IMG/VR virus record: IMGVR_UViG_2671180275_000001
Length of the DNA: 17,794 nucleotides
DNA from: a virus
Taxonomy: Duplodnaviria > Heunggongvirae > Uroviricota > Caudoviricetes
Strand: one strand, 5' to 3'
Shown here: positions 1-17,794 of the stretch, one piece after another
Position numbering within the stretch: the first letter of the stretch is position 1
Layout of the letters: each line of letters opens with the position of its first letter
The notes under the pieces: model-generated
What the model saw: only the letters and a program-made list of their open reading frames with translations
What the model was told of the DNA's origin: nothing
The model's database searches: none
Program-made: the position numbers and the translations under genes

Positions 1-11
1 CGTGGCCAATA

Positions 12-248
12 TTACTTGACCACTACAGTCCACTGAAATGCACGGACGCCACCGTGCCGTTCCAGAAAGGCTTTTAAAGATGGGTGTTCACATTTACGAA
101 CACGTATCGTCACGCTGTAAGTCGACAACTGGTTATTCAGTCCCGCCGCACGACGCTGTTCATAACCATCGCCCAGCTTCACTGTCACCACTTTCGGCTC
201 TGATACCACATTCATATCCGGGCGCACTTTCCAGTGAAACGTCTCCAT
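12..248 (-). CDS. M: minor tail protein, lambda gpM-like (78 aa; shorter than lambda M)
   Basis: Translation METFHWKVRPDMNVVSEPKVVTVKLGDGYEQRRAAGLNNQLSTYSVTIRVRK...FLERHGG is collinear with lambda M (MKTFRWKVKPGMDVASVP...GDGYSQRAPAGLNANLKTYSVTL...FLEEHGG). ATG at 248-246 overlaps the TAA stop of the upstream tape measure gene. Stop at 12-14. Confidence 0.8.
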   Translation of the reverse strand: METFHWKVRPDMNVVSEPKVVTVKLGDGYEQRRAAGLNNQLSTYSVTIRVRKCEHPSLKAFLERHGGVRAFQWTVVVK

Positions 249-3200: not shown

Positions 3201-3313
3201 CGTTCTGCATCGCTGGCTGCACCATTCAGAAGGTTTTTGATACGGGGAATTTCATTTTTAAACTCTGCCGCATCAATCCCCAAATCAATGACCAGGTTGG
3301 CTATCTGGTCCAT
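248..3313 (-). CDS. H: tail tape measure protein, lambda gpH-like (1021 aa from ATG at 3313)
   Basis: Long coiled-coil-rich ORF; C-terminus INNDGTNGQIGPAALKAVYDLGKK...DGGRLSGAYR matches the lambda H C-terminus. Start placed at internal ATG (MDQIANLVIDLG) preceded by GGAGGT about 7 nt upstream; the track ORF begins at an upstream TTG. Confidence 0.9.
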   Translation of the reverse strand: MDQIANLVIDLGIDAAEFKNEIPRIKNLLNGAASDAERSSARMQRFMERQTQAARQTTQAASSAATAASVHAQTVEKNAQAHERMAREVEKTRQRMEALSQKMREEQAQAMALAEVQDKAAAAFYRQIDSVKQASAGLQELQRIQQQIRQARNSGGIGQQDYLALISEVTAKTRVLTQAEEEATRQKVAFIRQLKEQATRLNLSSSELLRAKAAQLGVSSAAEVYIRKMEQAGKATHSLGLKSASARQEIGVLIGELARGNLGALRGSGITLANRAGWIDTLMSPKGMMLGGVIGGIAAAVYGLGKAWYDGQKEGEEFNRQLSLTGHYAGVTAGQLWTLSRAISGNGITQHAAAGALAQVVGSGAFRGNDIGMVARAAAQMERSVGQSVSDTINQFKRLKDDPVNAAKALDNELHFLTATQLEQIRVLGEQGRSSDAARIAMSALAEETGRRTADIDNNLNALGSTLKYLSDLWSRFWDAAMNIGREDSLDEQIAALQEKVSRAKRLPWTASSSQVEYDQQRLNDLQEKKRQKDLQDAKEQAERNYQEQQKRRNAENAALNRMNETEAARHQREIARINAMQYADQAVRDAAIQRENERYEKALASGKKKTRETLNDEATRLLLQYSQQQAQVEGQIAAARQSAGIATERMTEAHKQLLALQQRISDLDGKKLTADEKSVLARKDELIQALTLLDVKQQELQKQTALNELKKKTIQLTSQLAEEERAQRQQHDLDIATVGMGDQQRQRYQVQLSLRQKYQQQLEQLRRDSEQKGTYNTDDYRKAEQALTESLNRQLNENRRYWQQLEVVQGNWKNGVLRAFQDFTVDADNTAETAEQVFSSAFSNMGNGLATFVTTGKLNFKSFTSSVLSDMAKILAQATMMKSIKGIGSVLGFDLSSLSLNANGGIYQSADLSRYSGTVVNRPTFFAFAKGAGVMGEAGPEAILPLRRGADGKLGVVADIGGSGMAMFSPQYNIEINNDGTNGQIGPAALKAVYDLGKKAAADFMQQQARDGGRLSGAYR

Positions 3314-3635
3314 AACGCACACCTCCGGAAATACCTTCCCCAAGATGCATCAGTTCTTCGTCCGTTCGCTCCGGTATCCCGTTCTCTTCCGGTAAAAGGC
3401 TGAAATCAGCCACCGCAGCATCACTGCTGCCGGACACCATTCTCACGATCAATGCCTTCAGCGAGGCAAACTGCGCATCCATCCACACATCACTGAAGCT
3501 CTGCATCCGGAAATAATCGCCCCACTCACCAAGCTCAGTGGCCGACATTTCCGACAGCATCCGCCGCCAGTCTGCCCGCCGGAACTCCCGGGCAAGCCGC
3601 ATGACAAACTGCATTTCCCGCGTCAGGACTTTTCC
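3285..3635 (-). CDS. T: tail assembly chaperone, T-frame part of a G-T fusion made by programmed -1 frameshift (lambda gpT-like)
   Basis: ORF in the -1 frame relative to G, open upstream through the 3-prime end of G with no stop; position between G and H as in lambda. The standalone ATG at 3614 is probably not the functional start. Confidence 0.65.
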   Translation of the reverse strand, partial: GKVLTREMQFVMRLAREFRRADWRRMLSEMSATELGEWGDYFRMQSFSDVWMDAQFASLKALIVRMVSGSSDAAVADFSLLPEENGIPERTDEELMHLGEGISGGVRYGPDSQPGH

Positions 3636-4009
3636 GGCGTCAGCGCCTCATGCTCATCATCCACGGCATTATCAATGGCCCCCATACCGCTCAGCGACAG
3701 AACCATCTCCGCCCCCGCACCCAGGGCATCATACGACCATGTTGTAATAACGGATGCGCAAAGCGTCTCTACATCCTTAGACTGATCCGCATTCCACAGT
3801 GAGCGGGAAACCAGCCAGGCATTGATATCCATCCCCATCCGCAGAAAAGCAATCTGTCGTTCAGCCTCCGGCAGTTCTCCCTCCCCGGCATCAAACTTTG
3901 CCGTTCGCTGCTGAACAAACGTCAGATATTCAATTCTCTGCAGCCCGGACAGCTCACTGAGCACCACGGACTGTTTTTCATAATTAAACGTGTCCTGTTT
4001 CAGAAACAT
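3623..4009 (-). CDS. G: tail assembly chaperone, lambda gpG-like
   Basis: MFLKQDTFNYEKQSVVLSELSGLQRIEYL resembles lambda G N-terminus MFLKTESFEHNGVTVTLSELSALQRIEHL. GGAG lies 6 nt upstream of the ATG at 4009; the track ORF starts at an upstream TTG. Confidence 0.8.
   Translation of the reverse strand: MFLKQDTFNYEKQSVVLSELSGLQRIEYLTFVQQRTAKFDAGEGELPEAERQIAFLRMGMDINAWLVSRSLWNADQSKDVETLCASVITTWSYDALGAGAEMVLSLSGMGAIDNAVDDEHEALTPEKS
3629..3635 (-). other. candidate -1 ribosomal frameshift (slippery) site GGAAAAG at the end of G
   Basis: Minus-strand sequence ...ACG CCG GAA AAG TCC TGA in the G frame. Slipping back 1 nt at G-GAA-AAG puts tRNA-Lys on AAA and continues in the T frame (..GKVLTREMQFVMRL). 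Lambda uses G-GGA-AAG at the equivalent position. Confidence 0.5.
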
Positions 4010-6489: not shown

Positions 6490-8448
6490 TTACGCCGTAC
6501 ATTTCACCAGACCGCGGTGATCAACTGGCGCGACACCGGCGTCAATACGCACTTTCGTTGTCACGCCATCCACACTGAAGCCCTCCATCTGATCAATATA
6601 TGGCGTATCCACACCGTTGAGATAAGCCACTTCAATCGTATCGGAGCCTTTGGACGCAGCCAGGTAGAAGGTGGTCTGGCTGTTATCATCAAGACGAGGC
6701 TCTGCAATAACGGTCGCAAAATCTTTCACCGGGTTAATAATACCTGCGTTAATGTCAGCCCCCTTGACACTTGAGGAGCGAATGACCTGGTTAGCAACAG
6801 ACTCCATCGCCGTCGGTACCAGTACGAACGCAGGACGAATATTCAGATGACGCTCCCCCTCTTTCTGAACGCGCATCAACTGGCGGGCTTTATCCAGCGA
6901 TGCCACGTCCATTGCAGCGCTCTCCAGTACGTTTGCATGTTTCGCTTTATCGAACAGACTTACATTATCTGTGGAGATTTTCGGGTTAGACGTCAGAATG
7001 GCATAAACCAGATCGGCAATGGTGGATTTCGCCGCACGGCCCAGCTTCATCGGGACATCGGTCAGCATATTCAGATCATCATTGATAATGGCCTGACGGG
7101 TGATACTGAACAGCTCGCCATAGGTCGCCAGTGCAATAGTGGCCTGTTTATCTCCGGTGGTGACGTATTTATATTCCGCCCCTTCACGCACCTGACGCAG
7201 AGCACTGAAGCCCCCCATACCCACACGATGGGCAATTTTAAAATCAGACAACTGACCTTTCCGCGTCCACTGTTCATAGGTTTCAGGAGCATCTTCCCAG
7301 CCCTGCAGAATGGCTTTGTTCGCAACATCCAGCAGAATATTACCGAAGTCAGACGTACTGTGTGTGAACGCCGCACCGACCATCTGCATCGGGTTATAAC
7401 TGGAAACCCCAATACCCCGTTCAGTCAGTGACATACGGGCATATTCACGCAGGGTCATCCCGTTGTAGACATTATCACGTTCGGTTTTTTCAAATCCGGC
7501 ACGCGCCATCAGCGCCTGGCGGATCCCGTCCCCCACAAAATTACCGTTACCGGCATAAATATGAGCCGGGGTATTTTTATTGGATGGCGTGGACTCGCGC
7601 CCCATCTCGTTCAACAGCTTTTCGCGGGCCTGCTCCAGCGAACATTCAGGATCGGCAAGACACTGAGCCTGCAGAGTCTGATAACGCCCGCCAAACATGG
7701 CAAACAGATCATTAATACCGTTTACACGCGCTTTTTGCTCTGCCAGTACCTGCGCACGGATACTGTTTTCATCCACCACGGGTGCTGCTGCCTGCACTGG
7801 CGTCCGGGAGGCTGCAGGTTCATCATCCTGTACGCGTGGAGCACTGTTGCGTGGCGGAGTAATCATGTTTCGAATGGATTCCGGCATCTTTTTAAATTCC
7901 TCTGTACGTTTTGACTGAATACATGCCATTGCCTTAACGGCTGGCGTTACCTGATCAGCAAATCCATGTGCCAGACATTCGGCACCGGACATCCAGGTCT
8001 CATCCGCCAGCATGGCAGCAATTTCATCGGTGGTTTTCCCGGTTTTCTGTGCATAAGCGGGTAACAGAACCGCCTCAACTTTATCGAGCAGGTCGGCATA
8101 GGTGCGCATGTCCTCCGCATCACCGCCCGTAAAGCCAAATGGTTTATGAATCATCATGAAAGTGTTTTCCGGCATAATGACCGGGTTTCCCACCATCGCA
8201 ATGACCGACGCCATTGACGCCGCCACACCGTCGACATAAACGGTAATGGACGCACCATGTGTTTTCAGCGCATTAAAAATGGCGATGCCTTCAAAGACAT
8301 CGCCACCCGGTGAATTAATATGGAGATTAATGTGGGTGATATCGCCCAGTGCATTCAGATCACTGATAAACTGCTTCGCTGTAACACCCCAGAAACCAAT
8401 CTCGTCATAAATATAAATATCCGCGTCACTCTGGTGACCAGCCTGCAT
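6490..8448 (-). CDS. fused prohead protease (ClpP-like) / major capsid protein (HK97 fold), 652 aa
   Basis: N-terminus has ClpP-type motifs (IYDEIG, SPGGD, GVAASMAS, MMIHKPFG); C-terminal half has HK97-type capsid blocks (PEGAEYKY, FSITRQAIINDDL, TDTIEVAYLNG, KVRIDAGVA). Start set to the first ATG after the portal stop (MQAGHQSD...); the 739-aa track ORF would overlap the portal by about 250 nt. Confidence 0.9.
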   Translation of the reverse strand: MQAGHQSDADIYIYDEIGFWGVTAKQFISDLNALGDITHINLHINSPGGDVFEGIAIFNALKTHGASITVYVDGVAASMASVIAMVGNPVIMPENTFMMIHKPFGFTGGDAEDMRTYADLLDKVEAVLLPAYAQKTGKTTDEIAAMLADETWMSGAECLAHGFADQVTPAVKAMACIQSKRTEEFKKMPESIRNMITPPRNSAPRVQDDEPAASRTPVQAAAPVVDENSIRAQVLAEQKARVNGINDLFAMFGGRYQTLQAQCLADPECSLEQAREKLLNEMGRESTPSNKNTPAHIYAGNGNFVGDGIRQALMARAGFEKTERDNVYNGMTLREYARMSLTERGIGVSSYNPMQMVGAAFTHSTSDFGNILLDVANKAILQGWEDAPETYEQWTRKGQLSDFKIAHRVGMGGFSALRQVREGAEYKYVTTGDKQATIALATYGELFSITRQAIINDDLNMLTDVPMKLGRAAKSTIADLVYAILTSNPKISTDNVSLFDKAKHANVLESAAMDVASLDKARQLMRVQKEGERHLNIRPAFVLVPTAMESVANQVIRSSSVKGADINAGIINPVKDFATVIAEPRLDDNSQTTFYLAASKGSDTIEVAYLNGVDTPYIDQMEGFSVDGVTTKVRIDAGVAPVDHRGLVKCTA

Positions 8449-8461
8449 CCTGAACCAGGAA

Positions 8462-9970
8462 TTATTCTTCGGACTGGTCGTCGGTGTGCTGCGGCTCCTG
8501 TCGTTTCGTTGCGGCACTGCTGCCTCCTTTATCACTGGCCGGATCGGTATCAAATACCAGATCCAGCTTGCGGTTTTCATCAATTTCGGCCTTGCGCCGA
8601 CGTTTGACATCATCCGGATTACGACCACCAGCACGTACCCAGTCTGATTCTGTCGCCGCTCCACCACGAATCTGGATTTTCCAGGCCTCAGCCTCCTTAA
8701 CAGGGTCAATCCACGGCATCACTGGTCCGGAATACACCGCGGTATACAGTGAAGAACGGTCAAGATCGCGGGGTAGCCTGATAACACCGGATGCCACAGC
8801 CTGTTTCAGCCAGGCACGATACATCGGGCGGGTGACGGCACCAATAAACCAGTCCTGCAGGATCAGGTAGCCATCAGTAGACTCAACCAGTTCCTGACGC
8901 TGGGCGCTGTAAGTGCCGTTATAGTTGCGTGCCGTACTGGAAAAACTCAGACGACTGCCCGCCGCCACGGCACGCAACTGACCATTACGAAAAGTTTCAA
9001 GGTTAGGATTGGGACGATCCGACTTCACCATTCCGATTTCTTCGCCGGGTTTCAGATCGTCGTAAATAATGCCTGGCTGAATGGTAAGCTCGCGTTCATT
9101 CTCCTTGCTGTCATTACCATCCGTTTCATAGCTCTGTCCGTCGCCTTTCCGGATGTACATCCCCAGAGCAGCGGCGATCCTTGCTGCAGTCAGCTCAGAA
9201 TCTTCATACTCTTTCAGGGCGCTGAGGCGGATCAGCACACCGGACAATAAAGACGTCCCGCGCATCTGGTGCAGACGTCGAACAAATTTAAGATGCAGCA
9301 TTCGCTCTGCATCCACTTCTTTGGTTTCCATCTGCCGTCCGGATACAGGACGACTTTTATACACCAGATATTTTTCGGGACGCCCCCAGTCATCAACAAA
9401 CACGCCCTGATTCAGCCTGTTGCTCTCATCACTGGTCATGGGAATAAAGTCCGGCTCGAGCGCCTCCAGCCAGAAATGAACACCGGCAGAAGGCGTCAGG
9501 CTGTTTATGCGCCCGGAAACCATCTGGGCAAACACCTCACCATCGCGCAGCCAGGTACGCAGCATCAGACGTTCCAGCATCGGACGGGTAAACTGCCCGG
9601 TGACTTCCGGACTGACAGACCATTCACTCCATCGGGTACGTATCTCCGCTGCCAGGTCACGGGCAATGGCACCATTGCGTAATACCGGATGTGGCTCGAC
9701 AATAATCCCGTTTTTCCCCACCACCCGTTCTTCCAGCTTGTCAAATACACCAATGACCAGATCGTGGTTGTTATCAAGGTAACGGGCCTGCTCACGTAAC
9801 GACACGGCCCCGTACTGGCTTAACTGGTCGGCAGTTCGGTTCTCCCGTCGGGCTTTGTGTGTCCGCGTCGTTTTTACGGCCTCATAAGCTTGGATCACCG
9901 CTCGGGAACGCAGCCTTGCCGCTTTCCATCCTGGTGAAAAAACGCCAATCACATCATCAAGAATTGCCAT
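8462..9970 (-). CDS. B: portal protein, lambda gpB-like
   Basis: 502-aa ORF from MAILDDVIGVFSPGW with GAGG 5 nt upstream. Position between the W-like gene and the protease/capsid gene; length and overall composition resemble lambda B (533 aa). ATG overlaps the W-like stop (TGATG). Confidence 0.88.
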   Translation of the reverse strand: MAILDDVIGVFSPGWKAARLRSRAVIQAYEAVKTTRTHKARRENRTADQLSQYGAVSLREQARYLDNNHDLVIGVFDKLEERVVGKNGIIVEPHPVLRNGAIARDLAAEIRTRWSEWSVSPEVTGQFTRPMLERLMLRTWLRDGEVFAQMVSGRINSLTPSAGVHFWLEALEPDFIPMTSDESNRLNQGVFVDDWGRPEKYLVYKSRPVSGRQMETKEVDAERMLHLKFVRRLHQMRGTSLLSGVLIRLSALKEYEDSELTAARIAAALGMYIRKGDGQSYETDGNDSKENERELTIQPGIIYDDLKPGEEIGMVKSDRPNPNLETFRNGQLRAVAAGSRLSFSSTARNYNGTYSAQRQELVESTDGYLILQDWFIGAVTRPMYRAWLKQAVASGVIRLPRDLDRSSLYTAVYSGPVMPWIDPVKEAEAWKIQIRGGAATESDWVRAGGRNPDDVKRRRKAEIDENRKLDLVFDTDPASDKGGSSAATKRQEPQHTDDQSEE

Positions 9971-10182
9971 CAGAACCTCGCCAGCCGGTACCCGGGATGC
10001 CCCCGTCGTCGTGTAATCAGAGCCGCAAGGCGGCGCTCCCACTCCTGCCGCCCCTGCCGGATCTCAGATAAGTTTTCCATGGTCATCTGCTGACCATTAA
10101 AAGTGACGGATTTTCCGTCCAGCACTGCCATTTCAGCTTCCGTATAACGCTGAATCATGGCTTCAATATCATTCTGATTCAT
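9970..10182 (-). CDS. W: head-tail joining protein, lambda gpW-like
   Basis: 70-aa ORF (MNQNDIEAMIQRYTEAEMAVLDGKSVTF...RRRGHPGY). Lambda W is about 68 aa and ends ...QRRRGPAGFYV. ATGA overlap with the terminase stop, as for lambda A-W. GGAGG lies 6 nt upstream. Confidence 0.6.
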   Translation of the reverse strand: MNQNDIEAMIQRYTEAEMAVLDGKSVTFNGQQMTMENLSEIRQGRQEWERRLAALITRRRGHPGYRLARF

Positions 10183-11291
10183 AACCATCCTCCGGAAGTC
10201 AGCCAGGGGTTAACATCGTCAGTTACTGTTTTCTTCCGTTTTTGTTTTTTAACAGGCGTGGATACCGGTTCCGGTGTGGGTGACGGTTCGGTACTGTCCG
10301 GGACACACTCCAGCCAGGTTTCCCGGCTCGCCCACTCCGGTGCATCCGGCCAGCGGATCTTTTCGTATCCATGCAGAATGACCAGAGCCTCGGCATACAC
10401 CATCAGGTCAAAAGCTTCGTTGGCACCGCGACCCGGCTTACTCCATTTCCCGTCACTGCTCCGCTCTTCATACGTCAGTTCGTCGTAAAACCAGCTCCCC
10501 AGCCAGTCAGGGAAATGCACATAGCCGGGACCTGGCGAGTCACGCCATAACGCGTTATTCACCCTGTCTTTCAGGGCATCCGTCTGAAGAAGCCAGAGCG
10601 GTACATCACCTGCGGCCTGCGCCCGTCGGCCCGTTCGTCCGGTGTTATCAGGGAATGTACGGGTGATCAGTTTTGCGCGCCGGATGCTGTCGCCCTTAAA
10701 CAGGTAAATACGTTTACCAAGGCCATCACGACGGCAACGACGCCAGAATTTATAGGCATTATCAGTGACCCCGTCTTCACCGCCGGAGTCCACCGCCATT
10801 GCCATCAGTCGCATTTGTTGAGAAGGATCGGAGGCCAGCGGCCAGCTTTTATGAAAAACATCCGTCAGCAGGACATCCCAGTCTTCCGGATAGCTGGCCG
10901 GATCAATTCGCTGGCTCTCCCCGTCGCTGTCACCGCGCAATGACTGCGTGATGTTGTAACGATCAATAATCCAGCGTTCGCCACGGCTGCCATAGCCCGT
11001 TACCTGAACCACAAAACGGCGATGACGTCCCGCCTGCACATCCACTGTCGCCACAAGGAAATTAACGCCATCCGGCACACTGCGGGAAGGAACTGGCTCT
11101 GCCCGCTGCTCAAGCAATTCACTTTTTCGTTGCTCCATGCTGGCGCGGGGAAGATAAGGTAATCCCCAGTCGGTATTGATAACCGTCTTGAGTGTCTCTT
11201 CACTTCCGGTTGTCTCGTATTCCTGTTCTGCAGTAAGCAGTTTGTAAACGAGTTGCGAGAGTGTCTGATAAGCAGCTGCCGGCCCCTCCAT
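10179..11291 (-). CDS. A: terminase large subunit, gpA family, C-terminal portion only (5-prime truncated; probable pseudogene)
   Basis: 370-aa ORF matching the C-terminal part of lambda gpA (LVATVDVQ vs LTAGIDSQ; AVDSGG vs WDTGG; NEAFDLMVYAEAL vs NEALDCFVYALAA). Frame is closed by a stop 11 codons upstream of the ATG; no SD; upstream DNA is AT-rich and non-coding. No Walker-A N-terminal domain. Confidence 0.8.
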   Translation of the reverse strand: MEGPAAAYQTLSQLVYKLLTAEQEYETTGSEETLKTVINTDWGLPYLPRASMEQRKSELLEQRAEPVPSRSVPDGVNFLVATVDVQAGRHRRFVVQVTGYGSRGERWIIDRYNITQSLRGDSDGESQRIDPASYPEDWDVLLTDVFHKSWPLASDPSQQMRLMAMAVDSGGEDGVTDNAYKFWRRCRRDGLGKRIYLFKGDSIRRAKLITRTFPDNTGRTGRRAQAAGDVPLWLLQTDALKDRVNNALWRDSPGPGYVHFPDWLGSWFYDELTYEERSSDGKWSKPGRGANEAFDLMVYAEALVILHGYEKIRWPDAPEWASRETWLECVPDSTEPSPTPEPVSTPVKKQKRKKTVTDDVNPWLTSGGWL

Positions 11292-11313
11292 CCAGGAAGA
11301 AGTAAATAAAAGG

Positions 11314-11345
11314 TAACTAAATGATTATAAATAGTTATTTAGTTA
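11314..11345. repeat. AT-rich inverted repeat TAACTAAAT-N14-ATTTAGTTA next to the terminase truncation point
   Basis: Perfect 9-bp arms at about 11314-11322 and 11337-11345, within 25 bp of the ATG at 11291. Confidence 0.4.
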
Positions 11346-11659
11346 TACTACCTCCTACATAGTCCAAGATTTAGTACCTGCTTAAACGATAAAAAAAGAA
11401 ACAAAAGCAGCAATATTAATTAAAAGCTGAATGATGATGGGGGTACGCTTGTGTCTGATTCCGGTAACGCGGTGGATTAATCCCAGTATTTCGGCTTCTG
11501 TCATTGTGCCCCCATCGCGCTGGTGAAGAAAACAAGCTCAGATTTTTTGTAAAGAATCTGTCACGCTAAAAGATGTCGAACAAAAAATAACCTTCTTCAT
11601 CATCTTTTTCACATCAAAATAATTAAAAACAATCACTTACGCACATGATGATGATGACG

Positions 11660-11760
11660 ATAAAATCAAAAAAATGCGCTTTTTTCCGCGCCGCCCGCCC
11701 CGTGTTCAGGCCCACCCCACCAGGAGGACCCGCAAAAAAGGCGGCTGGTGCCGCCTTGTT
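11660..11760 (-). repeat. conserved ~100-bp element, copy A (terminator plus conserved distal block)
   Basis: Aligns at roughly 85% identity with 14198-14299 (ATAAAATCAAAAAATGCGC...TTTTTCCGCGCC...CCGCCCCGTG...CAGGCC...ACCCCACCAGGAG...AAAAAAG + hairpin). Identity is by eye. Confidence 0.6.
11733..11756 (-). terminator. intrinsic terminator after the second protease/capsid gene
   Basis: Minus strand GGCGG-CACCAG-CCGCC followed by TTTTTT, starting 6 nt after the stop at 11762. Confidence 0.6.
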
Positions 11761-11761
11761 G

Positions 11762-13651
11762 TCATAGTGAATCTGTCCCGCCTGATTTGACCATACCGCG
11801 ATAATCCAGAGCTGCCACACCTGCATCAATACGGACTTTCCAGGCCACGCCGTCAACGATAAAACCTTCCTGCTGTTCAAGGTAAGGCTCGTCATTGCCA
11901 TCAAGATAAGCCACCTCGATTGTGTCAGTTCCCTGTGCGGAAAGCATGTACCATTGTTTTTCGCTGATATCATCAAGGCGGGGATCGACGATGATATCAA
12001 GTAGCTTGTGGTACGGGTTAAAGATCCCGCTGTTTTTATCAGCCCCGAAAGGTGCGGTTGAGTTAATCATCTGCAACGCGCGATCTTCCAGTGCTGCCGG
12101 AACTAAAAGGAATTTAGGCGCAATATTCAGCACTTCGCCATTTTTGTCCTTCTGTGTGCGCATCAGGTGACGTGCTGCACTAAGTCCCGATGTTGTCAGT
12201 CCTGCTTCAATCAGGTTGCTGTGTTTTTTGTCAAACAGCGTTATTCCGTCAGAAAGTTTTACGTTGCCTGTAAGCACCAGATTAACCAGATTTCCCACCG
12301 TTCTTGATGCTGCACGGCCCATAGCCATTGGCACCGTTGATAACTGATCAAGGTCATCATTGATTATCGCCTGGCGGGTAATGCTGAAAATATTCCCGTA
12401 AGTAGCCAGCGCGATGGGTTCACCGCGATCGCTGGTGGTGATGTATTTATATTCTGCCCCTTCCGGCACTTTGCTTAACGTAGAGAAACCATTCAGGCCA
12501 ACGCGGCGGGCTTCACGAAAGTTTGAAAGGGAACCTTTTTTCGTCCACTGGCGGAATGTTTCGCCGCTGTGCTCCCAGCCTGCAAGCACTGATTTTTCAG
12601 CGCCACCAGCAAGGATATCGGTAAAATCGCTGCTGCTGTGGTTGAATGCCGCGTTTACTATCTGCGAGCGTGTGCCGTAGCTGCCCGTGCTTATACCACG
12701 ATGGGTTAATGATGCCTGTGCCATATCGAAAAGACTCATCATGGCGTAAGGATTACCGCGTTCGGCCCGTTCGTGACCAAGACGCGCATTAAGCCCCTGA
12801 CGCATGGCATCGCCAGTTATATTGCCGTTATCCGTGTACGCGTAGTAAAGATTTGCGGGGGTGGTTTTGTTTGTTGGCGTTGATTCTTTACCCATAGCGA
12901 GTAAAAGGCGTTCGCGTGCATTCTCAACGCTACATTCTGAATCCGCAAGACAACTTATAGCCAGGTCGTTATATCTTCCGTTGAAGGTGCCAAACAATTC
13001 ACGGATTCCGTTAAGTCGTTCCTGTTCGCCACTGCCAGTTTTCTGGCTGATCATGCTTTTAATTTTTTCCGGCATATTTGAAAAATCTCCGATTCGTTTT
13101 GATTCAATTCGGGCCATTGCTGTAATCGCGGGTATAACCTCATCTGCGAAGCCGTTAGCCTTACACTCATTGCCATCCATCCAGGTTTCCGCCTCCATCA
13201 TGGCGGTGATTTCCTGTTTGCTCCTGCCCGTTCTTCCGGCGTAGGTTTCTGCCATCGTGTCGCCCAGCTTGTCCATCAGGTCAGCAAAGCGGCGAACGTC
13301 GCCCGACACTCCGGCAGTAACACCACGGGGGGTATGTATCATCATCATCGCGTTTTCAGGCATAACGATGTGATCGCCACACATGGCAATAAACGAGGCC
13401 ATAGAAGCCGCCATGCCCTCAATGTGTACAATTTTCTTTGCCGGATGATTTTTCAGGGCGTTATAGATAGCCAGCCCTTCAAAGATGTCGCCACCAGGTG
13501 AATGGATGCGAAGATGGATTTCAGACGCATTACCACACGCGTTGATCTCGTCAGTAAGTGCCGATGCTTTTACACCGTACCCGCCGATCTCGTCATAAAT
13601 GCGCACATAGACAACATCTGCCATAGCCTTAATGGAAAACCATGTTTTCAT
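11762..13651 (-). CDS. second fused ClpP-like protease / HK97-fold major capsid protein (629 aa), divergent paralogue of 6490..8448
   Basis: Same domain order and motifs (RIYDEIG, HSPGGD, GMAASMAS, MMMIHTPRG, PEGAEYKY, FSITRQAIINDDL, TDTIEVAYLDG, KVRIDAGVA). AGGAGA lies 6 nt upstream of the ATG at 13651, which overlaps the stop of the upstream small ORF (ATGA). Confidence 0.85.
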   Translation of the reverse strand: MKTWFSIKAMADVVYVRIYDEIGGYGVKASALTDEINACGNASEIHLRIHSPGGDIFEGLAIYNALKNHPAKKIVHIEGMAASMASFIAMCGDHIVMPENAMMMIHTPRGVTAGVSGDVRRFADLMDKLGDTMAETYAGRTGRSKQEITAMMEAETWMDGNECKANGFADEVIPAITAMARIESKRIGDFSNMPEKIKSMISQKTGSGEQERLNGIRELFGTFNGRYNDLAISCLADSECSVENARERLLLAMGKESTPTNKTTPANLYYAYTDNGNITGDAMRQGLNARLGHERAERGNPYAMMSLFDMAQASLTHRGISTGSYGTRSQIVNAAFNHSSSDFTDILAGGAEKSVLAGWEHSGETFRQWTKKGSLSNFREARRVGLNGFSTLSKVPEGAEYKYITTSDRGEPIALATYGNIFSITRQAIINDDLDQLSTVPMAMGRAASRTVGNLVNLVLTGNVKLSDGITLFDKKHSNLIEAGLTTSGLSAARHLMRTQKDKNGEVLNIAPKFLLVPAALEDRALQMINSTAPFGADKNSGIFNPYHKLLDIIVDPRLDDISEKQWYMLSAQGTDTIEVAYLDGNDEPYLEQQEGFIVDGVAWKVRIDAGVAALDYRGMVKSGGTDSL

Positions 13652-13842
13652 AGCCAGTCTCCTAACGTTGCCCTGTACCAGTATTCAACCGCGCTTCTCG
13701 CAATCTGCCCTTTCGTGGGTACTGGCATTCCAGGGTGATTACTTTTAATGAACTGCTGATAGCGTTCTATCTTTTCCATAGTTCCGGCGTCTATGTGTAC
13801 CGTGGCACTTTTATCCGGCTTTCTGGTGTTGTTCTCTGGCAT
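13648..13842 (-). CDS. small protein (64 aa) translationally coupled to the second capsid gene; possible ribbon-helix-helix fold
   Basis: Start at internal ATG (MPENNTRKPDKSATVHIDAGTMEKIERYQQFIK...GQIARSAVEYWYRATLGDWL) with GGAGG 7 nt upstream. Strand-helix-turn-helix pattern is a guess from residue periodicity. Confidence 0.45.
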   Translation of the reverse strand: MPENNTRKPDKSATVHIDAGTMEKIERYQQFIKSNHPGMPVPTKGQIARSAVEYWYRATLGDWL

Positions 13843-14033
13843 AAATCCGCCTCCGTTTTGATTAACGGGCATCATTATTGATCGACAAAAGTAATAGATA
13901 AATCATTTTCTACCTGAAAATCAGATTATGTTTTTTCTGATTATTCTCAGAGAGGCAAAGCCATTGACGCATTTTTGCTATTGAAGCAATATTAAGACTC
14001 GTCATCATGGCGATAAAAACTCCTTTGTCGTGT

Positions 14034-14074
14034 AAAAGCGCCTCCGGTAACAGCAATCGGGGGCGCTTTTTTTT
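14034..14074 (+). terminator. plus-strand intrinsic terminator-like hairpin in an intergenic region
   Basis: Plus strand GCGCCTCCG-GTAACAGCAAT-CGGGGGCGC (9-bp stem including one G-U pair) followed by T8. In the minus orientation only TTTT follows. Confidence 0.5.
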
Positions 14075-14197
14075 GCGCCTGTTTTTTTGTAAATGTTTTC
14101 GGGAACGTTCCAGTGATGAACAAAAAACAACCTGATTCGACACTAAAAATTTTTATTCCTCAATATATCAATAGCTTATAGTGGTGGTGATGGTGCC

Positions 14198-14299
14198 ATA
14201 AAAATCAAAAAATGCGCCTTTTTCCGCGCCCCTCCGCCCCGTGGACAGGCCACCCCCACCAGGAGTACCTACAAAAAAGCCGGATTTCTCCGGCTGTTG
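14198..14299 (-). repeat. conserved ~100-bp element, copy B (terminator plus conserved distal block)
   Basis: Second copy of the element at 11660-11760; directly 3-prime of the PerC-like gene. Confidence 0.6.
14272..14296 (-). terminator. intrinsic terminator after the PerC-like gene
   Basis: Minus strand AGCCGGA-GAAA-TCCGGCT followed by TTTTTT, starting 5 nt after the stop at 14301. Confidence 0.6.
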
Positions 14300-14300
14300 A

Positions 14301-14573
14301 TTAGCTGTCTGGGTAATTACGCCATATTTCATCGCTTACACCATCTATACCCATTTCAGCATAAGTGCGATCGACTACCTTTCTCAGGTCTCCGAAGTTA
14401 TCCGGCGGCTCCGGTGGCCTCTGTGCCTTCCTGGAACATTCCAGCCGTCGCATCGTAACCTGATGCCGTTCCTTGTCTGTCTCCACCAGCTGCATGACTT
14501 CACCCCATCGCGCCGCCGCCCTCCGGTAAAATCCTTTCGCCTCGAGTTCCTCCGCTATGCGGTCATGTATCAT
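14301..14573 (-). CDS. PerC-family-like small transcriptional regulator (90 aa)
   Basis: N-terminal IAEELEAKGFYRRAAARWGEVM matches the AExLExKG-(F/W)-RRAAxRW signature I associate with PerC/Pch proteins. ATG at 14573 with GGAGAG upstream. Confidence 0.5.
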   Translation of the reverse strand: MIHDRIAEELEAKGFYRRAAARWGEVMQLVETDKERHQVTMRRLECSRKAQRPPEPPDNFGDLRKVVDRTYAEMGIDGVSDEIWRNYPDS

Positions 14574-14748
14574 CGCCTGACTCTCCGGTTTTTACGTTGA
14601 TGGTTGTTACCTGTTCCGCTTCGGCAATCTCCCGTTCTGTCAACGTGGCAAAGTTTGCCGCCGCTGTGGTCATGAATGCGCTTATCAGTTCGGGATGCTC
14701 CTTCGCGTATCCTTCCCCAGCGTGGCGGTCTATTACCCTGATTGCCAC
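14563..14748 (-). CDS. small acidic hypothetical protein (61 aa); frame and start uncertain
   Basis: Protein-like composition (MAIRVIDRHAGEGYAKEHPELISAF...); GTG start without a clear SD. An overlapping 77-aa Arg-rich frame (14570..14803) ends in an ATGA overlap with the PerC-like start and could be the real gene instead. Confidence 0.3.
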   Translation of the reverse strand: MAIRVIDRHAGEGYAKEHPELISAFMTTAAANFATLTEREIAEAEQVTTINVKTGESGDDT

Positions 14749-14785
14749 CTTTAAGGCGTGCTCTGTCTCTGCGCATTTTGGTTAT

Positions 14786-14990
14786 CTCCTCACTCATGCT
14801 CACTTTTACACCTCACTTTTTAAAGCGTCTCGCTTCGTCTCACTTGATATTTTTTGATGCTTTATGTGTGTGTTTCATAAGGATTTTTTTACTCCTCACT
14901 TTTGAGCATGTATACAGGTGAGAAAGTGAGTAATCGTGTTAATATTTTGTAAAAACCTCACCATTACTCACTTTTGCTACTCACTTTTTA
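14786..14990. repeat. iteron-like direct repeats (CTCACTTTT) flanking an AT-rich spacer; candidate replication origin
   Basis: At least six direct copies of (C)TCACTTTT plus one inverted copy (GTGAGAAAGTGAG) around an AT-rich stretch at about 14846-14892, immediately 3-prime of the helicase-like gene. Confidence 0.5.
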
Positions 14991-16388
14991 CAGTGGTCCT
15001 ACATCATCACCATCAATGTAAATCACGGCGTCTTTTTCCAGTTTGGCTAACCATCGCCGCATATTTTTCACGTCATACCCAAGCCGTTTCATGTCATCAC
15101 GTAACAGCGGGATCGTGCACTTGTCGCCGTTCTGTGTGCGTGAACGGATGCACCCCCATAGTGCGGTATGGTTTTCCGTCTTGTTGCCTGCCTCCTCGAT
15201 GCGTTCCAGTTCAACGGGAGGGCGCGGCTTATCCACCACCACCAGCGACGTGATTAACTCCCCGTCAGCGTCGGTAAACAGCTCCACCACGCGTAAGTCA
15301 TATGCGGCTTCTTTGAGTTCCTCCGCGTCCTTCATTTTGGTGCATGAGATAACCAGCGCTTCGCTTCCTGCGTCCTCCCTGCGTATCCGGTATTCAGCAT
15401 CCAGCGAAGCACGAAATGCACTGGAACCGCGCGCGCCTTTCGTCTCATCCTTGCCGGAATGGTGAACCACCAGCACCGTGGCCCCTGTGCGTCGTTTCAG
15501 TTCGTCACAACCACGGATAAACGCCCCCATATCACGGGAATCATTTTCATCATTCCCACCAAAGCAACGCGCCAGCGTATCCAGAATAATCATGCGTACA
15601 GGTTTACCCGTTTCCCGCTCCACCTGACGGGCAGCGATAACCATTTCATCAACATCAAGCGGGGCAGCCGGAAAGATGGGGCGGTTTACCAGATACAGAT
15701 TTTTCACCTGCTCATCGTGCACAACCTCCCAGGCTTTTACACGACGCGGAACACCTATACCGCCTTCACCAACCACATAGAGAACCGCACCATGTGCAAC
15801 CCTGCGGCCTCCCCACTGGCGACCAGTGGCAACATGGCACGCCCACGATCCGGCAAGGAATGATTTATAGGACCCGCTAGCCCCGTATATGCTGCACAGC
15901 GATACCGCCGGAATAATCCCCTTAACCACGTAATCAAGTTGTGTGTCGTATCCGGCAGATCCCACGCTCATTGGTAGCGTGGTTTTTCGCTGGTGGTGTT
16001 TTTCTTCCCCTGGCTTTTTCCCCCGCTCCCGTTCCAGATATTCGCGCCAGTTCTCCCGCTTCTGGCTGTGCATCCCTTCGGGGTAATAATTCGCATCAGT
16101 TACACCCGCCGCCGCCAGCTTGTGCGCAATGGCATTAATATTTGATGGCCTGATGTGGCCTGCCTTGTACAGCCGGACACAATAGCGCCCCTCGTCGATG
16201 ATTCTCAGGTCTGCCAGTTCATCCAGTTGATCATCAGCCAGCACAACGGGAGGCACATTATCGCCAGCCAGTCGCCCGTCCTGTTCCTGCCACTGTTTCG
16301 CATGTGCCCAGGCATCACTACCCGCAAAAATAATGACTTCGGTCATCTTGTCGTAAGGCTGTTTTTTTAAGTTCGGTGCGCTTTTCAT
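14988..16388 (-). CDS. replication protein: RepA/DnaB-like RecA-fold P-loop helicase (AAA_25-like) with an N-terminal domain of unclear type
   Basis: Walker A YGASGSYKSF and Walker B MIILDTLARCFGGNDEND, with LVVHHSGKDETKGARGSSAF downstream, as in RepA-type hexameric helicases. ATGA overlap with the upstream 99-aa ORF. Confidence 0.75.
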   Translation of the reverse strand: MKSAPNLKKQPYDKMTEVIIFAGSDAWAHAKQWQEQDGRLAGDNVPPVVLADDQLDELADLRIIDEGRYCVRLYKAGHIRPSNINAIAHKLAAAGVTDANYYPEGMHSQKRENWREYLERERGKKPGEEKHHQRKTTLPMSVGSAGYDTQLDYVVKGIIPAVSLCSIYGASGSYKSFLAGSWACHVATGRQWGGRRVAHGAVLYVVGEGGIGVPRRVKAWEVVHDEQVKNLYLVNRPIFPAAPLDVDEMVIAARQVERETGKPVRMIILDTLARCFGGNDENDSRDMGAFIRGCDELKRRTGATVLVVHHSGKDETKGARGSSAFRASLDAEYRIRREDAGSEALVISCTKMKDAEELKEAAYDLRVVELFTDADGELITSLVVVDKPRPPVELERIEEAGNKTENHTALWGCIRSRTQNGDKCTIPLLRDDMKRLGYDVKNMRRWLAKLEKDAVIYIDGDDVGPL

Positions 16389-16684
16389 TTCTTGCCCCTG
16401 AATCCGTTAATCATGGTTTTCAGCTTCTGGATGTTTGCCCGTGCCCTGGCGTTGCTGGTGGGCACGTTATGCGGCGCGGTCTGTACCAGAGAAAAATCAC
16501 GCCGGAACTGATAAACAGGCATCACGCAATCATATTCGTAACCTTCACGGCGGTAAGTTACGCACCGTCCCGCCACGCCCTTAATCATTACCGTACCGCC
16601 GTACTGGTCGCGGTAAATATCACCGCGCGTAAATTTAGGGTGAGTGTTGCCACTGGCAGTTAAGCCAGAATATTTAAGTTTCAT
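16385..16684 (-). CDS. hypothetical protein (99 aa)
   Basis: ATG start; stop overlaps the helicase start (ATGA). No recognised motif. Confidence 0.5.
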   Translation of the reverse strand: MKLKYSGLTASGNTHPKFTRGDIYRDQYGGTVMIKGVAGRCVTYRREGYEYDCVMPVYQFRRDFSLVQTAPHNVPTSNARARANIQKLKTMINGFRGKK

Positions 16685-16689
16685 TATTT

Positions 16690-16923
16690 TTATTCTCCGG
16701 TGTGCTGTTCTTTATATCTGTCGTGCAATAGATCTATTTCTTGCAGTTCCATTATTACATGCTCAAGAATCGTTATTAATGCCGTGGCAATTCTTGATTT
16801 TTGTTTGTCGCGTTCATTGTCGCCAAGTGTTTCAAGCCATATGCGCAATATTTCCATCATGCTTTCACTGTGAGAAAGTGCAAGAAATGCGCGGTCTATT
16901 GTTTCAAGATAAATATCACGCAT
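16690..16923 (-). CDS. hypothetical helical protein (77 aa)
   Basis: ATG one nt after the stop of the upstream ORF (TAAtATG); GGGGA upstream. No recognised motif. Confidence 0.45.
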   Translation of the reverse strand: MRDIYLETIDRAFLALSHSESMMEILRIWLETLGDNERDKQKSRIATALITILEHVIMELQEIDLLHDRYKEQHTGE

Positions 16924-16924
16924 A

Positions 16925-17359
16925 TTAATCCCCGTCCGTTGTTTTTCTTAAAACAGCTTCTGTCACGAAATCGGCATAGTTAGCGGCAATATCAAGAATA
17001 TTTAGCCCTGTATCTCTGTGCTCATCAGTGCAAAGAAAGAAAAAAGCCACCCGCATAATTTCAGATATTAACGAAAGCGCATCAACCGCATCATCAGGAA
17101 CGCCGGAAAATTCTTGTTTCAGGGAATTAAAACGATCATCACGCATAACCCCCCCATTTTCACAATCAGCAACAAGAATATTTTTAGCGTCATTCAGTGA
17201 CCGCGTTGCGGTGTATCGGATACATTCCAGGGCGAATAGTGTGTATTCTTCCCGTCCTTCCTTTTGTGCAAGCTCTGCTGTGCATTCAATATCAATAAGC
17301 GCGTGCATCAGCGTAGTGAGCGCGGCGGCTGCTGCGTCCGGTGTGGTTTTATTGCACAT
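16925..17359 (-). CDS. hypothetical protein (144 aa)
   Basis: Start at internal ATG (MCNKTTPDAAAAALTTLMH...) with GGAGGT 6 nt upstream. No recognised motif. Confidence 0.5.
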   Translation of the reverse strand: MCNKTTPDAAAAALTTLMHALIDIECTAELAQKEGREEYTLFALECIRYTATRSLNDAKNILVADCENGGVMRDDRFNSLKQEFSGVPDDAVDALSLISEIMRVAFFFLCTDEHRDTGLNILDIAANYADFVTEAVLRKTTDGD

Positions 17360-17540
17360 GGCACACCTCCTGACGAATACGGGCGGCGAATACAGCAACA
17401 CAACCGGACGGGCAACGGCTACGCGCTTCGCGTTCCGTCCAGGCGGTTACGTGGATGATTTGAGATTCTGACGCGCCAAAGATGATAAAGCGCCAGATAA
17501 ATGCGGTTTGAGAATGTACAAGGGTAGGGATAGTAGCCAT
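17349..17540 (-). CDS. hypothetical small protein (63 aa) with a Cys-x3-Cys ... Cys-His pattern
   Basis: Internal ATG (MATIPTLVHSQTAFIWRF...RCPSGCVAVFAARIRQEVCHVQ) with GGAGG 7 nt upstream; first gene after the terminator-like hairpin at about 17702-17725. Confidence 0.4.
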   Translation of the reverse strand: MATIPTLVHSQTAFIWRFIIFGASESQIIHVTAWTEREARSRCPSGCVAVFAARIRQEVCHVQ

Positions 17541-17701
17541 GTTGGCAGCCTCCTCAGTGTGGTTAAGATAACCGCCACGCAAAAGGCTAATTTCGCTGGT
17601 GGCGGACTGTACAGGGTTAGCCTTACCGGACACTGAAGAAACCGGCGCGGATTGCTCCGCCCCCGTACAGCCCACCATTGATAAGGTGTGACTATGCGGC
17701 A

Positions 17702-17725
17702 CAAAAAAACACGCGGGGCGCGTGC
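17702..17725 (-). terminator. intrinsic terminator-like hairpin closing a transcription unit that lies beyond the window end
   Basis: Minus strand CACGCG-CCC-CGCGTG followed by T7. Confidence 0.4.
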
Positions 17726-17794
17726 TGTGCGCTTCAGTTGTTTTCAGGAGGCTAATCCCGACACCCGTTTTATGAGGTGCGCGGGAATCATAGC

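Follow-up and report, generated by a model that had tools for sequence, protein, structure and literature searches.

The DNA stretch analysed here, a caudoviricete sequence of 17,794 nucleotides (nt) from IMG/VR record IMGVR_UViG_2671180275_000001 (hereafter, the window), carries at its right end the 5′ part of the early/replication operon of a satellite of the EcCICFT073 family, the left end of which lies beyond the window. On the minus strand, four small open reading frames (ORF1 to ORF4), encoding an Icd-like protein, two proteins from families of unknown function and RgdR, are followed by the gene for a RepA-family helicase (Table 1). Upstream of ORF1, we identified a cassette that consists of an IsrK-like RNA, a C4 antisense RNA and a leader with C4 target sites, in the same order as in the immI region of P1, and that represents the main regulatory feature of the locus. 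We consider it likely that this cassette is an immI-type RNA switch gating the translationally coupled early/replication operon of the satellite.

Both RNAs are full-length matches that score above the gathering thresholds of the corresponding Rfam models (50 bits for isrK and 45 bits for C4). The IsrK-like RNA includes an intrinsic terminator as well as copies, a1 and b1, of the C4 targets, whereas the targets themselves, a2 and b2, reside in the leader, with b2 located at the ribosome-binding site of ORF1. In the minimum-free-energy fold, C4 has a long outer stem that encloses two inner hairpins, and its 3′ GCCACCA motif resembles the 3′ end of a tRNA. Unrestricted RNAduplex comparison of the whole RNAs unfolds C4 and is uninformative; the complementarity of a′ and b′ was scored instead by loop-only searches over the 455 nt between positions 17340 and 17794. 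Nowhere in this interval do a′ and b′ have better complements than a2 and b2, respectively. The sequence-only reading, an earlier interpretation of this DNA that had singled out the four small genes, placed the beginning of the gene cluster just after a terminator-like hairpin. The G+C hairpin with its T-run is indeed there, and its membership in the RNA cassette had been missed, but the cluster does not follow directly, as the 88-nt C4 RNA and the 54-nt leader intervene. The cassette is widespread, with matches in 2781 of the 5426 complete Escherichia coli genomes.

The pairing between C4 and its targets is preserved despite extensive sequence change. Among 12 fetched loci (designated L001 onwards), in which each C4 was compared with its own and with the other leaders, the b′ of every C4 finds its partner at one and the same place (+34/35 nt) in its own leader, with a mean energy of −14.0 kcal/mol for the cognate pairs versus −6.3 kcal/mol for the non-cognate ones. 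The window and L001 have the same b′ and different a′ segments, and both a1 and a2 have changed to match. Pattern scanning of IMG/VR yielded 123 cassettes with 38 distinct sequences, 37 of which were aligned for covariation analysis. In this alignment, 95% of the b′–b2 cells and 88% of the a′–a2 cells are paired, compared to 35–46% in slid controls; changes on both sides are found in 8 of the 12 b′–b2 pairs and 5 of the 8 a′–a2 pairs, and none of 500 shuffles reached the observed covariation score. Compensatory changes occur in the C4 stems as well. Furthermore, a1 and b1 within isrK co-vary with C4, the cognate pairing being the best one in 30 of 33 rows for a′–a1 and in 32 of 33 rows for b′–b1. 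Altogether, 13 types of b′ and 10 types of a′ appear in 24 combinations.

The conserved unit extends beyond the RNAs themselves. Past the C4 target site, codons 1 to 5–7 (MATIPTL-like) are kept whichever protein follows, be it Icd-like, Rha or unknown proteins of 77 or 156 amino acids (aa), as observed in L008, L011, L013 and L014 and in IMG/VR loci L016–L131. This conservation suggests that the boundary of the cassette lies inside the first gene. In L010 (positions 1–3718), which comes from an E. coli genome, a large gene for an RNA-directed DNA polymerase lies immediately upstream of the cassette, and the gene for the 156-aa unknown protein follows it, beside tRNA-Thr.

The genes that would be controlled by the cassette form a tight chain. 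The lengths of the four ORFs and their overlapping or abutting junctions, running into the helicase gene, are as described in the sequence-only reading; Shine–Dalgarno sequences precede ORF1 and ORF2, GGAGA lies ahead of ORF4, and ORF3 starts within its TAAtATG junction with ORF2. At least 80% of the segment 14900–17794, which covers the four ORFs and the helicase gene, is present in 495 complete E. coli genomes, and protein searches returned 395 and 517 clusters of homologues for ORF2 and ORF3, respectively. Because the ORFs are intact across these relatives, their coding status, for which conservation had been proposed as a check, is supported. Likewise, the description of a satellite-type element, with the cluster tightly coupled upstream of a replicative helicase, agrees with the synteny with relatives and EcCICFT073. 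A terminator scan detected no minus-strand terminator-like site between positions 17540 and 14988, and there is only a single weak promoter-like match in this interval, suggesting that the region is a single transcription unit.

From these features, we infer processing of C4, repression, polarity and titration by IsrK, as well as all protein activities in this element, and envisage the following course of events. Transcription would start at a promoter straddling the end of the window. In L006, which carries a 100% identical cassette, the complete promoter-like sequence, TTGATC-18-TATGAT, ends 7 nt ahead of the first base of the isrK model. The first product would be the IsrK-like RNA with its decoy sites a1 and b1, and part of the transcripts would end at its terminator, whereas read-through would extend across C4, the leader with a2 and b2, the icd-like gene, ORF2, ORF3, rgdR, the repA helicase gene, the iterons of the origin and perC. 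C4, presumably excised by RNase P as in P1, would use a′ and b′ to pair with a2 and b2 and block translation of the icd-like gene, because b2 contains its Shine–Dalgarno sequence. Given that the start of each later cistron lies at the preceding stop codon or no more than a few bases from it, the loss of icd translation would silence the whole chain through lost coupling and polarity. An excess of the IsrK-type RNA (a1b1) would titrate C4 and open the operon, such that the helicase could fire the adjacent iteron origin, and the Icd-like protein would probably arrest host cell division. Two precedents exist: the annotation of P1 describes icd as 'apparently required for expression of ant', and in the Salmonella prophage Gifsy-1, IsrK activates the downstream gene via translational coupling (PMC4825925).

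Several points weigh against this model. Its regulatory side is computational throughout, and the promoter is truncated by the end of the window. The leader of EcCICFT073, the archetype on which experiments have been done, contains neither C4 nor isrK, including in a permissive Rfam search, and that island is activated by AlpA (PMC6092414); the RNA layer therefore would be an optional module, either alternative or additional to AlpA. ORF3 differs from its counterpart in L001 by 10 non-synonymous and only 2 synonymous substitutions. Finally, the frame that starts at the AUG of C4 enters icd in frame in the window, and the equivalent orf45 of Gifsy-1 is translated (PMC4825925).

The latter observation bears on an alternative interpretation, namely, that the upstream sequence encodes a genuine Ash-Icd protein of 109–188 aa that functions as a transcriptional repressor, the RNA matches being incidental. 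Ahead of ORF1, its frame continues without a stop codon as far as the window end, and this 117-aa 'ash' frame matches the Pfam family Phage_ASH (PF10554) with 39.4 bits, above the gathering cut-off of 26 bits. In addition, phrog_29966 is a family of 188-aa proteins, related PHROGs are labelled 'transcriptional repressor', and 'Icd-like' proteins of 241–246 aa are annotated across the region in some genomes; orf45 of Gifsy-1 also overlaps a C4-like RNA. However, the residues matched to Phage_ASH are the translation of isrK and C4, and the variation tracks RNA pairing, with compensatory changes in the stems and loops changing together with distant targets, which is unexpected for a protein. In 9 of the 12 loci, the frame starting from the conserved AUG of C4 agrees with that of the main ATG; it is shifted in 3, and it stops inside C4 in P1 and L010. 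Overall, 5 of the 12 loci have an interrupted or shifted ash frame. Moreover, the N-terminus of 'Ash' derives from elsewhere: in L006 (8886–9224), the ash ORF opens with a remnant of 24 codons from the 5′ end of icd behind a CFT073-like promoter, followed by isrK and C4. The Prokaryotic Genome Annotation Pipeline (PGAP) of NCBI treats the ash ORF of L001, L006, L012 and L014 as an incomplete pseudogene, and it does the same with a 'hypothetical protein' that covers this stretch in L009. We therefore regard an Ash-Icd repressor as very unlikely; the ash extension is most likely translated RNA sequence, and the PF10554 family itself may have been built partly on such translations. Because orf45 is translated in Gifsy-1, a minor extended Ash-Icd product may nevertheless be made.

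The diversity of genes found behind the cassette invites a broader version of the RNA-switch model. In the 123 IMG/VR cassettes, the following gene encodes a Rha-type regulator in about 60 cases; in about 21, it encodes the L011-type 77-aa protein, the family of which is unknown. In 4 cases, icd and then ant follow, and about 33 have icd with a replicase gene behind it (primase, DUF927 or RepA) or are incompletely resolved, whereas no gene was recognized behind 5 cassettes. One full a/b specificity is common to Rha-type phages, L011-type elements and a satellite with icd, DUF4222 and primase genes, whereas, in this limited sample, the specificity of the window itself was found in icd-type elements only. 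It is conceivable, even if we consider it quite improbable, that the cassette is a combinatorial RNA 'immunity code' shared by helper-type prophages and satellites, by which the satellite would sense its helper through RNA cross-talk, instead of or besides AlpA. The cassette would then gate the Rha or Ant antirepressors in phages, and icd together with the replicase in satellites. A resident phage whose C4 has the same a/b specificity would silence the satellite, and induction of that phage would flip the balance between IsrK and C4, resulting in derepression of the satellite.

Table 1. Features of the RNA cassette, the coupled operon and the adjoining satellite and prophage genes (positions in the window)
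Feature	Coordinates	Strand	Remarks
TATGAT, −10 hexamer of a putative promoter for isrK/C4/icd	17787..17792	minus	consensus match only; −35 beyond window end
IsrK-like RNA (c4-a1b1 element)	17780..17704	minus	Rfam RF01394, full-length, 61.8 bits
a1, UUAGCCU	17755-17749	minus	in isrK, position 25
b1, ACUGAAG	~17738-17732	minus	in isrK, position 42
isrK intrinsic terminator	stem 17726-17708 + T-run	minus	same as the 'terminator-like hairpin' of the sequence-only reading
C4 antisense RNA	17682..17595	minus	Rfam RF01695, 75.4 bits, model positions 1-87 of 87
b′, 12-nt C4 loop	17641-17630	minus	UUUCUUCAGUGU
a′, 8-nt single-stranded C4 segment	17624-17617	minus	AAGGCUAA
Operon leader with C4 target sites	17594..17541	minus	identified by complementarity
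a2	17590-17583	minus	UUAGCCUU; pairs with a′, −9.3 kcal/mol
b2	17560-17549	minus	ACACUGAGGAGG; contains Shine–Dalgarno GAGGAGG; pairs with b′, −15.0 kcal/mol
ORF1 (Icd-like protein)	17540..17349	minus	63 aa; Shine–Dalgarno GAGGAGG (17555-17549) 8 nt ahead of ATG
ORF2	17359..16925	minus	144 aa; AGGAGG, 6 nt, ATG; 11-nt overlap with ORF1 end
ORF3	16923..16690	minus	77 aa; junction with ORF2 is TAAtATG
ORF4 (RgdR)	16684..16385	minus	99 aa; GGAGA upstream; start 5 nt past ORF3 stop
RepA-family helicase	16388..14988	minus	466 aa; ATGA overlap with ORF4 stop
Putative replication origin	14799..14988		six CTCACTTTT iterons, two flanking sets and central inverted pair
PerC-family transcriptional activator	14301-14573	minus	90 aa, 149 bits; downstream of origin
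Satellite ClpP-capsid fusion	11762-13651	minus	629 aa
Prophage ClpP-protease/major-capsid fusion	6490-8709		739 aa

The product of ORF1 is an Icd-like protein, a predicted homologue of the core of the P1 cell-division inhibitor. It matches the NCBIfam model NF033153 (host cell division inhibitor Icd-like), scoring 59.6 bits where the cut-off is 25 bits, and its alignment with residues 11–49 of P1 Icd includes the common pattern FIWRF...TE.EARS..P.G..F.AR; this part corresponds to the P1 core, residues 12–51, which on their own suffice to block division via FtsZ (PMC11897509). A tblastn search with ORF1 against 50,697 phage records produced a single match, to a 16.5-kb induced element, and did not recover P1 at E<1e-3, so that the homology to P1 Icd rests on the hidden Markov model and the shared motifs. 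A narrow Icd alignment found only two loci in a data set with one genome per species, and at this level of similarity the family appears to be essentially confined to Escherichia and Shigella.

The finding that ORF1 and ORF4 are covered by the NCBIfam Icd-like model and the Pfam family DUF4222 (RgdR), respectively, supersedes the earlier statement that none of the four proteins contains a recognizable motif. The sequence-only reading had made an exception for Cys and His residues in the 63-aa protein, taken as a possible zinc site like those of small phage late-gene activators, which would make ORF1 a zinc-binding transcription activator of the Ogr/Delta type. The pattern, C43-x3-C47 and C60-H61, is present in the protein from the window, but it is not conserved: of 90 close relatives, only 11 retain C60; in place of C43, CFT073 has Ser and P1 has Leu; and only C47 is broadly kept, whereas several relatives contain LPHTHL or LPYAHL in place of the whole motif, with no Cys in the stretch. 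Ogr/Delta-type zinc fingers have four conserved Cys (or His) ligands, no such set is conserved here, and ORF1 matches the Icd-like model instead; accordingly, this assignment was rejected and is almost certainly incorrect.

The Icd relationship brings up the possibility that the cluster is an abortive-infection or superinfection-exclusion module, with the Icd-like protein as the toxic effector released upon phage sensing and with ORF2, ORF3, RgdR and the replicase as its partners. P1 Icd kills cells through the FtsZ block (PMC11897509), elements differ in how many small ORFs lie between icd and DUF4222 and in the sequences of these ORFs, and the ratio of non-synonymous to synonymous changes in ORF3 is high. 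Furthermore, a prophage-encoded system from ECOR61 (Silas et al., bioRxiv 10.1101/2023.04.06.535777) is, going by its description, closely similar in architecture. Nevertheless, a PADLOC-DB 2.0 scan of the four ORFs, the helicase and the larger proteins gave no defence-protein match, and the conserved link to a replicase and an origin is more simply explained by the life cycle of a satellite, so that we view a defence module as an unlikely interpretation. It is compatible with the RNA-switch model, and the two are not mutually exclusive. The general expectation that this position would hold regulators or anti-defence genes is thus borne out in its first part, as RgdR is a published regulator and the founder of the Icd family acts on the host through FtsZ, but finds no counterpart in PADLOC.

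ORF2 and ORF3 are likely variable accessory proteins. Neither has a match in Pfam, NCBIfam, PADLOC or the Protein Data Bank (PDB), and both fall into PHROG families of unknown function only: families 2512, 5146 and 24341 in the case of ORF2 and phrog_2196 in the case of ORF3. PDB sequence searches for ORF2, ORF3 and ORF4 returned nothing usable, and comparison of the ORF2 and ORF3 profiles did not reveal a relationship between the two. Homologues of both proteins are almost confined to E. coli. ORF2 appears to be an in-frame, poly-G-mediated fusion of two genes of ~73 aa that are separate and overlapping in CFT073: its residues 1–70 are 89% identical to C_RS06965 and residues 72–144 are 74% identical to C_RS06970. 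The junction corresponds to a G7 run (17155–17149), closely followed by an internal ATG (17146–17144). Across the compared records, the length of the run (G7 in the window, fused; G8 in CFT073, split; G10 in L001, fused with one extra Gly) toggles between one fused protein of 144/145 aa and two overlapping proteins of 73 aa; these differences could reflect slipped-strand variation, or sequencing errors in some of the records. The AlphaFold2 model of ORF2, based on 37 sequences, is too poor for a fold search (predicted local distance difference test, pLDDT, of 55); the N-terminal half is modelled as a helical hairpin. ORF3 is a predicted all-helical, acidic protein, 83% identical to C_RS06975 of CFT073 and conserved beside rgdR. 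Its homologue clusters are nearly all from E. coli and of 77 aa, and the alignment of these homologues is 96% identical.

ORF4 is, by sequence, an RgdR orthologue. It matches DUF4222 (PF13973) with 82.1 bits, compared to the gathering cut-off of 27 bits, and is 91% identical to C1493, the CFT073 variant that activates type III secretion when expressed in enterohaemorrhagic E. coli (EHEC) (PMC3378721). The RGD residues and K35, which matter for RgdR activity (PMC3378721), are present in ORF4 as R20-G21-D22 and K35; across DUF4222, the RGD triplet is not conserved, PGD being the commonest variant. A 797-aa 'DUF4222 repeat' match was discarded as spurious. The AlphaFold2 model, obtained with 25 diverse homologues, has a mean pLDDT of 76.5 (~90 in the core) and consists of a small five-stranded β-barrel followed by a basic C-terminal helix. 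A similar fold is seen in the Tudor domains at the C-termini of the UvrD and PcrA helicases, suggesting that RgdR is likely a small Tudor/KOW-like β-barrel protein that serves as a transcription or replication co-factor.

All E. coli phage-inducible chromosomal islands (PICIs) analysed by Fillol-Salom et al. (2018; PMC6092414) encode RgdR. In L002, L006, L007, L009, L012 and L015, as well as in the window, the DUF4222 gene is located directly upstream of the replicase gene, usually with a 4-nt overlap, and the replicases behind it are of three unrelated types, namely, RepA helicase, primase and DUF927. This association suggests that the native role of RgdR lies in replication and not in the regulation of virulence. 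It is also, together with the Tudor-like fold shared with helicases, an argument for viewing ORF2, ORF3 and RgdR as common accessory factors of replication (helicase loader, origin-binding or priming factors) that have no regulatory or host-directed role. We deem this rather unlikely, and it is, along with the readings of the upstream sequence as an Ash-Icd gene and of ORF1 as a zinc finger, among the weaker explanations of the locus. In L013 (3869–4495), the usual position of DUF4222, between the small ORFs and a TOPRIM/DUF927 replicase, is occupied by a gene for a 'ubiquitin family protein'.

The remainder of the satellite is consistent with a Gram-negative PICI. The helicase, which matches PF13481 (AAA_25; 149.8 bits) and phrog_2850 and is annotated as 'helicase RepA family protein' in relatives, is the predicted replication initiator of the satellite. 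The iterons sit at and just past the 3′ end of its gene, and a helicase followed by iterons is the layout of PICI origins (PMC6092414); the region is likely the origin of replication. Several features by which Gram-negative PICIs are recognized (Fillol-Salom et al., 2018) are found here: an initiator with an iteron origin, unidirectional transcription, with all genes between 17540 and 11762 on one strand, and a capsid-related gene in an element without its own tail or lysis genes. PICI members of the PerC family, to which the product of the gene downstream of the origin belongs, can activate the LEE (locus of enterocyte effacement) island. The integrase (int) and AlpA or other helix-turn-helix genes occupy the expected place at the left end in L001, L006, L009, L012 and L015, whereas the window stops inside the promoter. 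In the relatives, the order is int, helix-turn-helix/AlpA, the RNAs where present, icd-like, 1–4 small ORFs, DUF4222 and replicase, and the genes farther downstream differ, including small ORFs as well as genes for single-stranded DNA-binding protein, PerC, the small terminase subunit and capsid proteins. The basic classification is unchanged: the four genes belong to the usual complement of an island family that has already been described.

The satellite, of which the window contains positions 11291–17794, appears to be inserted within terL, the gene for the large terminase subunit, of a lambdoid prophage. Of terL, the window contains only the 3′ nuclease half (10179–11291), which adjoins the right end of the satellite; in L015 (9777–21619), the 5′ half of terL is found just past the integrase gene of the satellite, and the junction between terL and the satellite recurs in 64 complete E. 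coli genomes. The ClpP-capsid fusions of the satellite and the prophage are 51% identical over the whole length.

We found no literature linking C4 or IsrK RNAs to PICIs or other satellites. An immI-type switch wired to the replication operon of a satellite thus appears to be undescribed, but it is unsurprising, as all its parts come from described families. The potential implications are threefold. First, E. coli PICIs are regarded as having no repressor and as being turned on by AlpA, and an RNA lock of the P1 type would add a second, sequence-specific layer of control. Second, translated RNA would explain why an 'ash family' pseudogene is annotated at this spot in hundreds of genomes. Third, RgdR, an activator of type III secretion in EHEC, would be placed under RNA control in a mobile satellite and is genetically tied to a replicase, which bears on the tuning of virulence by prophage-like islands.

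The closest known counterpart of the cassette is immI of P1 and P7. The order of the elements (a1-b1, c4, a2-b2, icd), the secondary structure of C4, the structural positions of a′ and b′, the 22-nt spacing between a2 and b2, the location of b2 at the ribosome-binding site of a first cistron from the Icd family and the overlap of the next gene with the icd stop codon are all alike. By contrast, the specificity sequences are unrelated, the a1b1 element belongs to RF03163 in P1 and to the isrK-type RF01394, with its own terminator, in the satellite, and the place that the antirepressor ant1/2 has in P1 is taken by three small proteins, a replicative helicase and the origin that goes with the helicase. 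Furthermore, P1 is a plasmid prophage, whereas the element described here is an integrated satellite. The isrK-orf45 (STnc1160)-anrP locus of Gifsy-1 in Salmonella shares with the cassette IsrK, a leaky terminator, a conserved RNA of ~80 nt and a coupled downstream gene (PMC4825925). Gifsy-1 IsrK acts in trans on the read-through transcript (PMC4825925), which we count as a likeness to the model proposed here. The differences are that the downstream gene of Gifsy-1 encodes an antirepressor turning on the antiterminator AntQ and that the emphasis of the published model is on IsrK as an activator and on orf45 being translated, and less on C4 as a repressor.

On the side of the operon, EcCICFT073 and other E. 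coli PICIs (PMC6092414) have the same succession of icd-like gene, small ORFs, 77-aa ORF, rgdR, replicase, origin iterons, perC and capsid homologue. However, EcCICFT073 encodes a primase-type Pri-Rep in place of the RepA helicase and two 73-aa proteins in place of the fused ORF2, and it lacks the isrK/C4 cassette, its known control being the activator AlpA. Finally, RgdR (ECs1581) from O-island 51/CP-933C (Flockhart et al., 2012; PMC3378721) and ORF4 are both DUF4222 proteins of 99 aa with RGD at positions 20–22 and K35; the former was assayed only for activation of LEE and type III secretion and for repression of motility in EHEC (PMC3378721).

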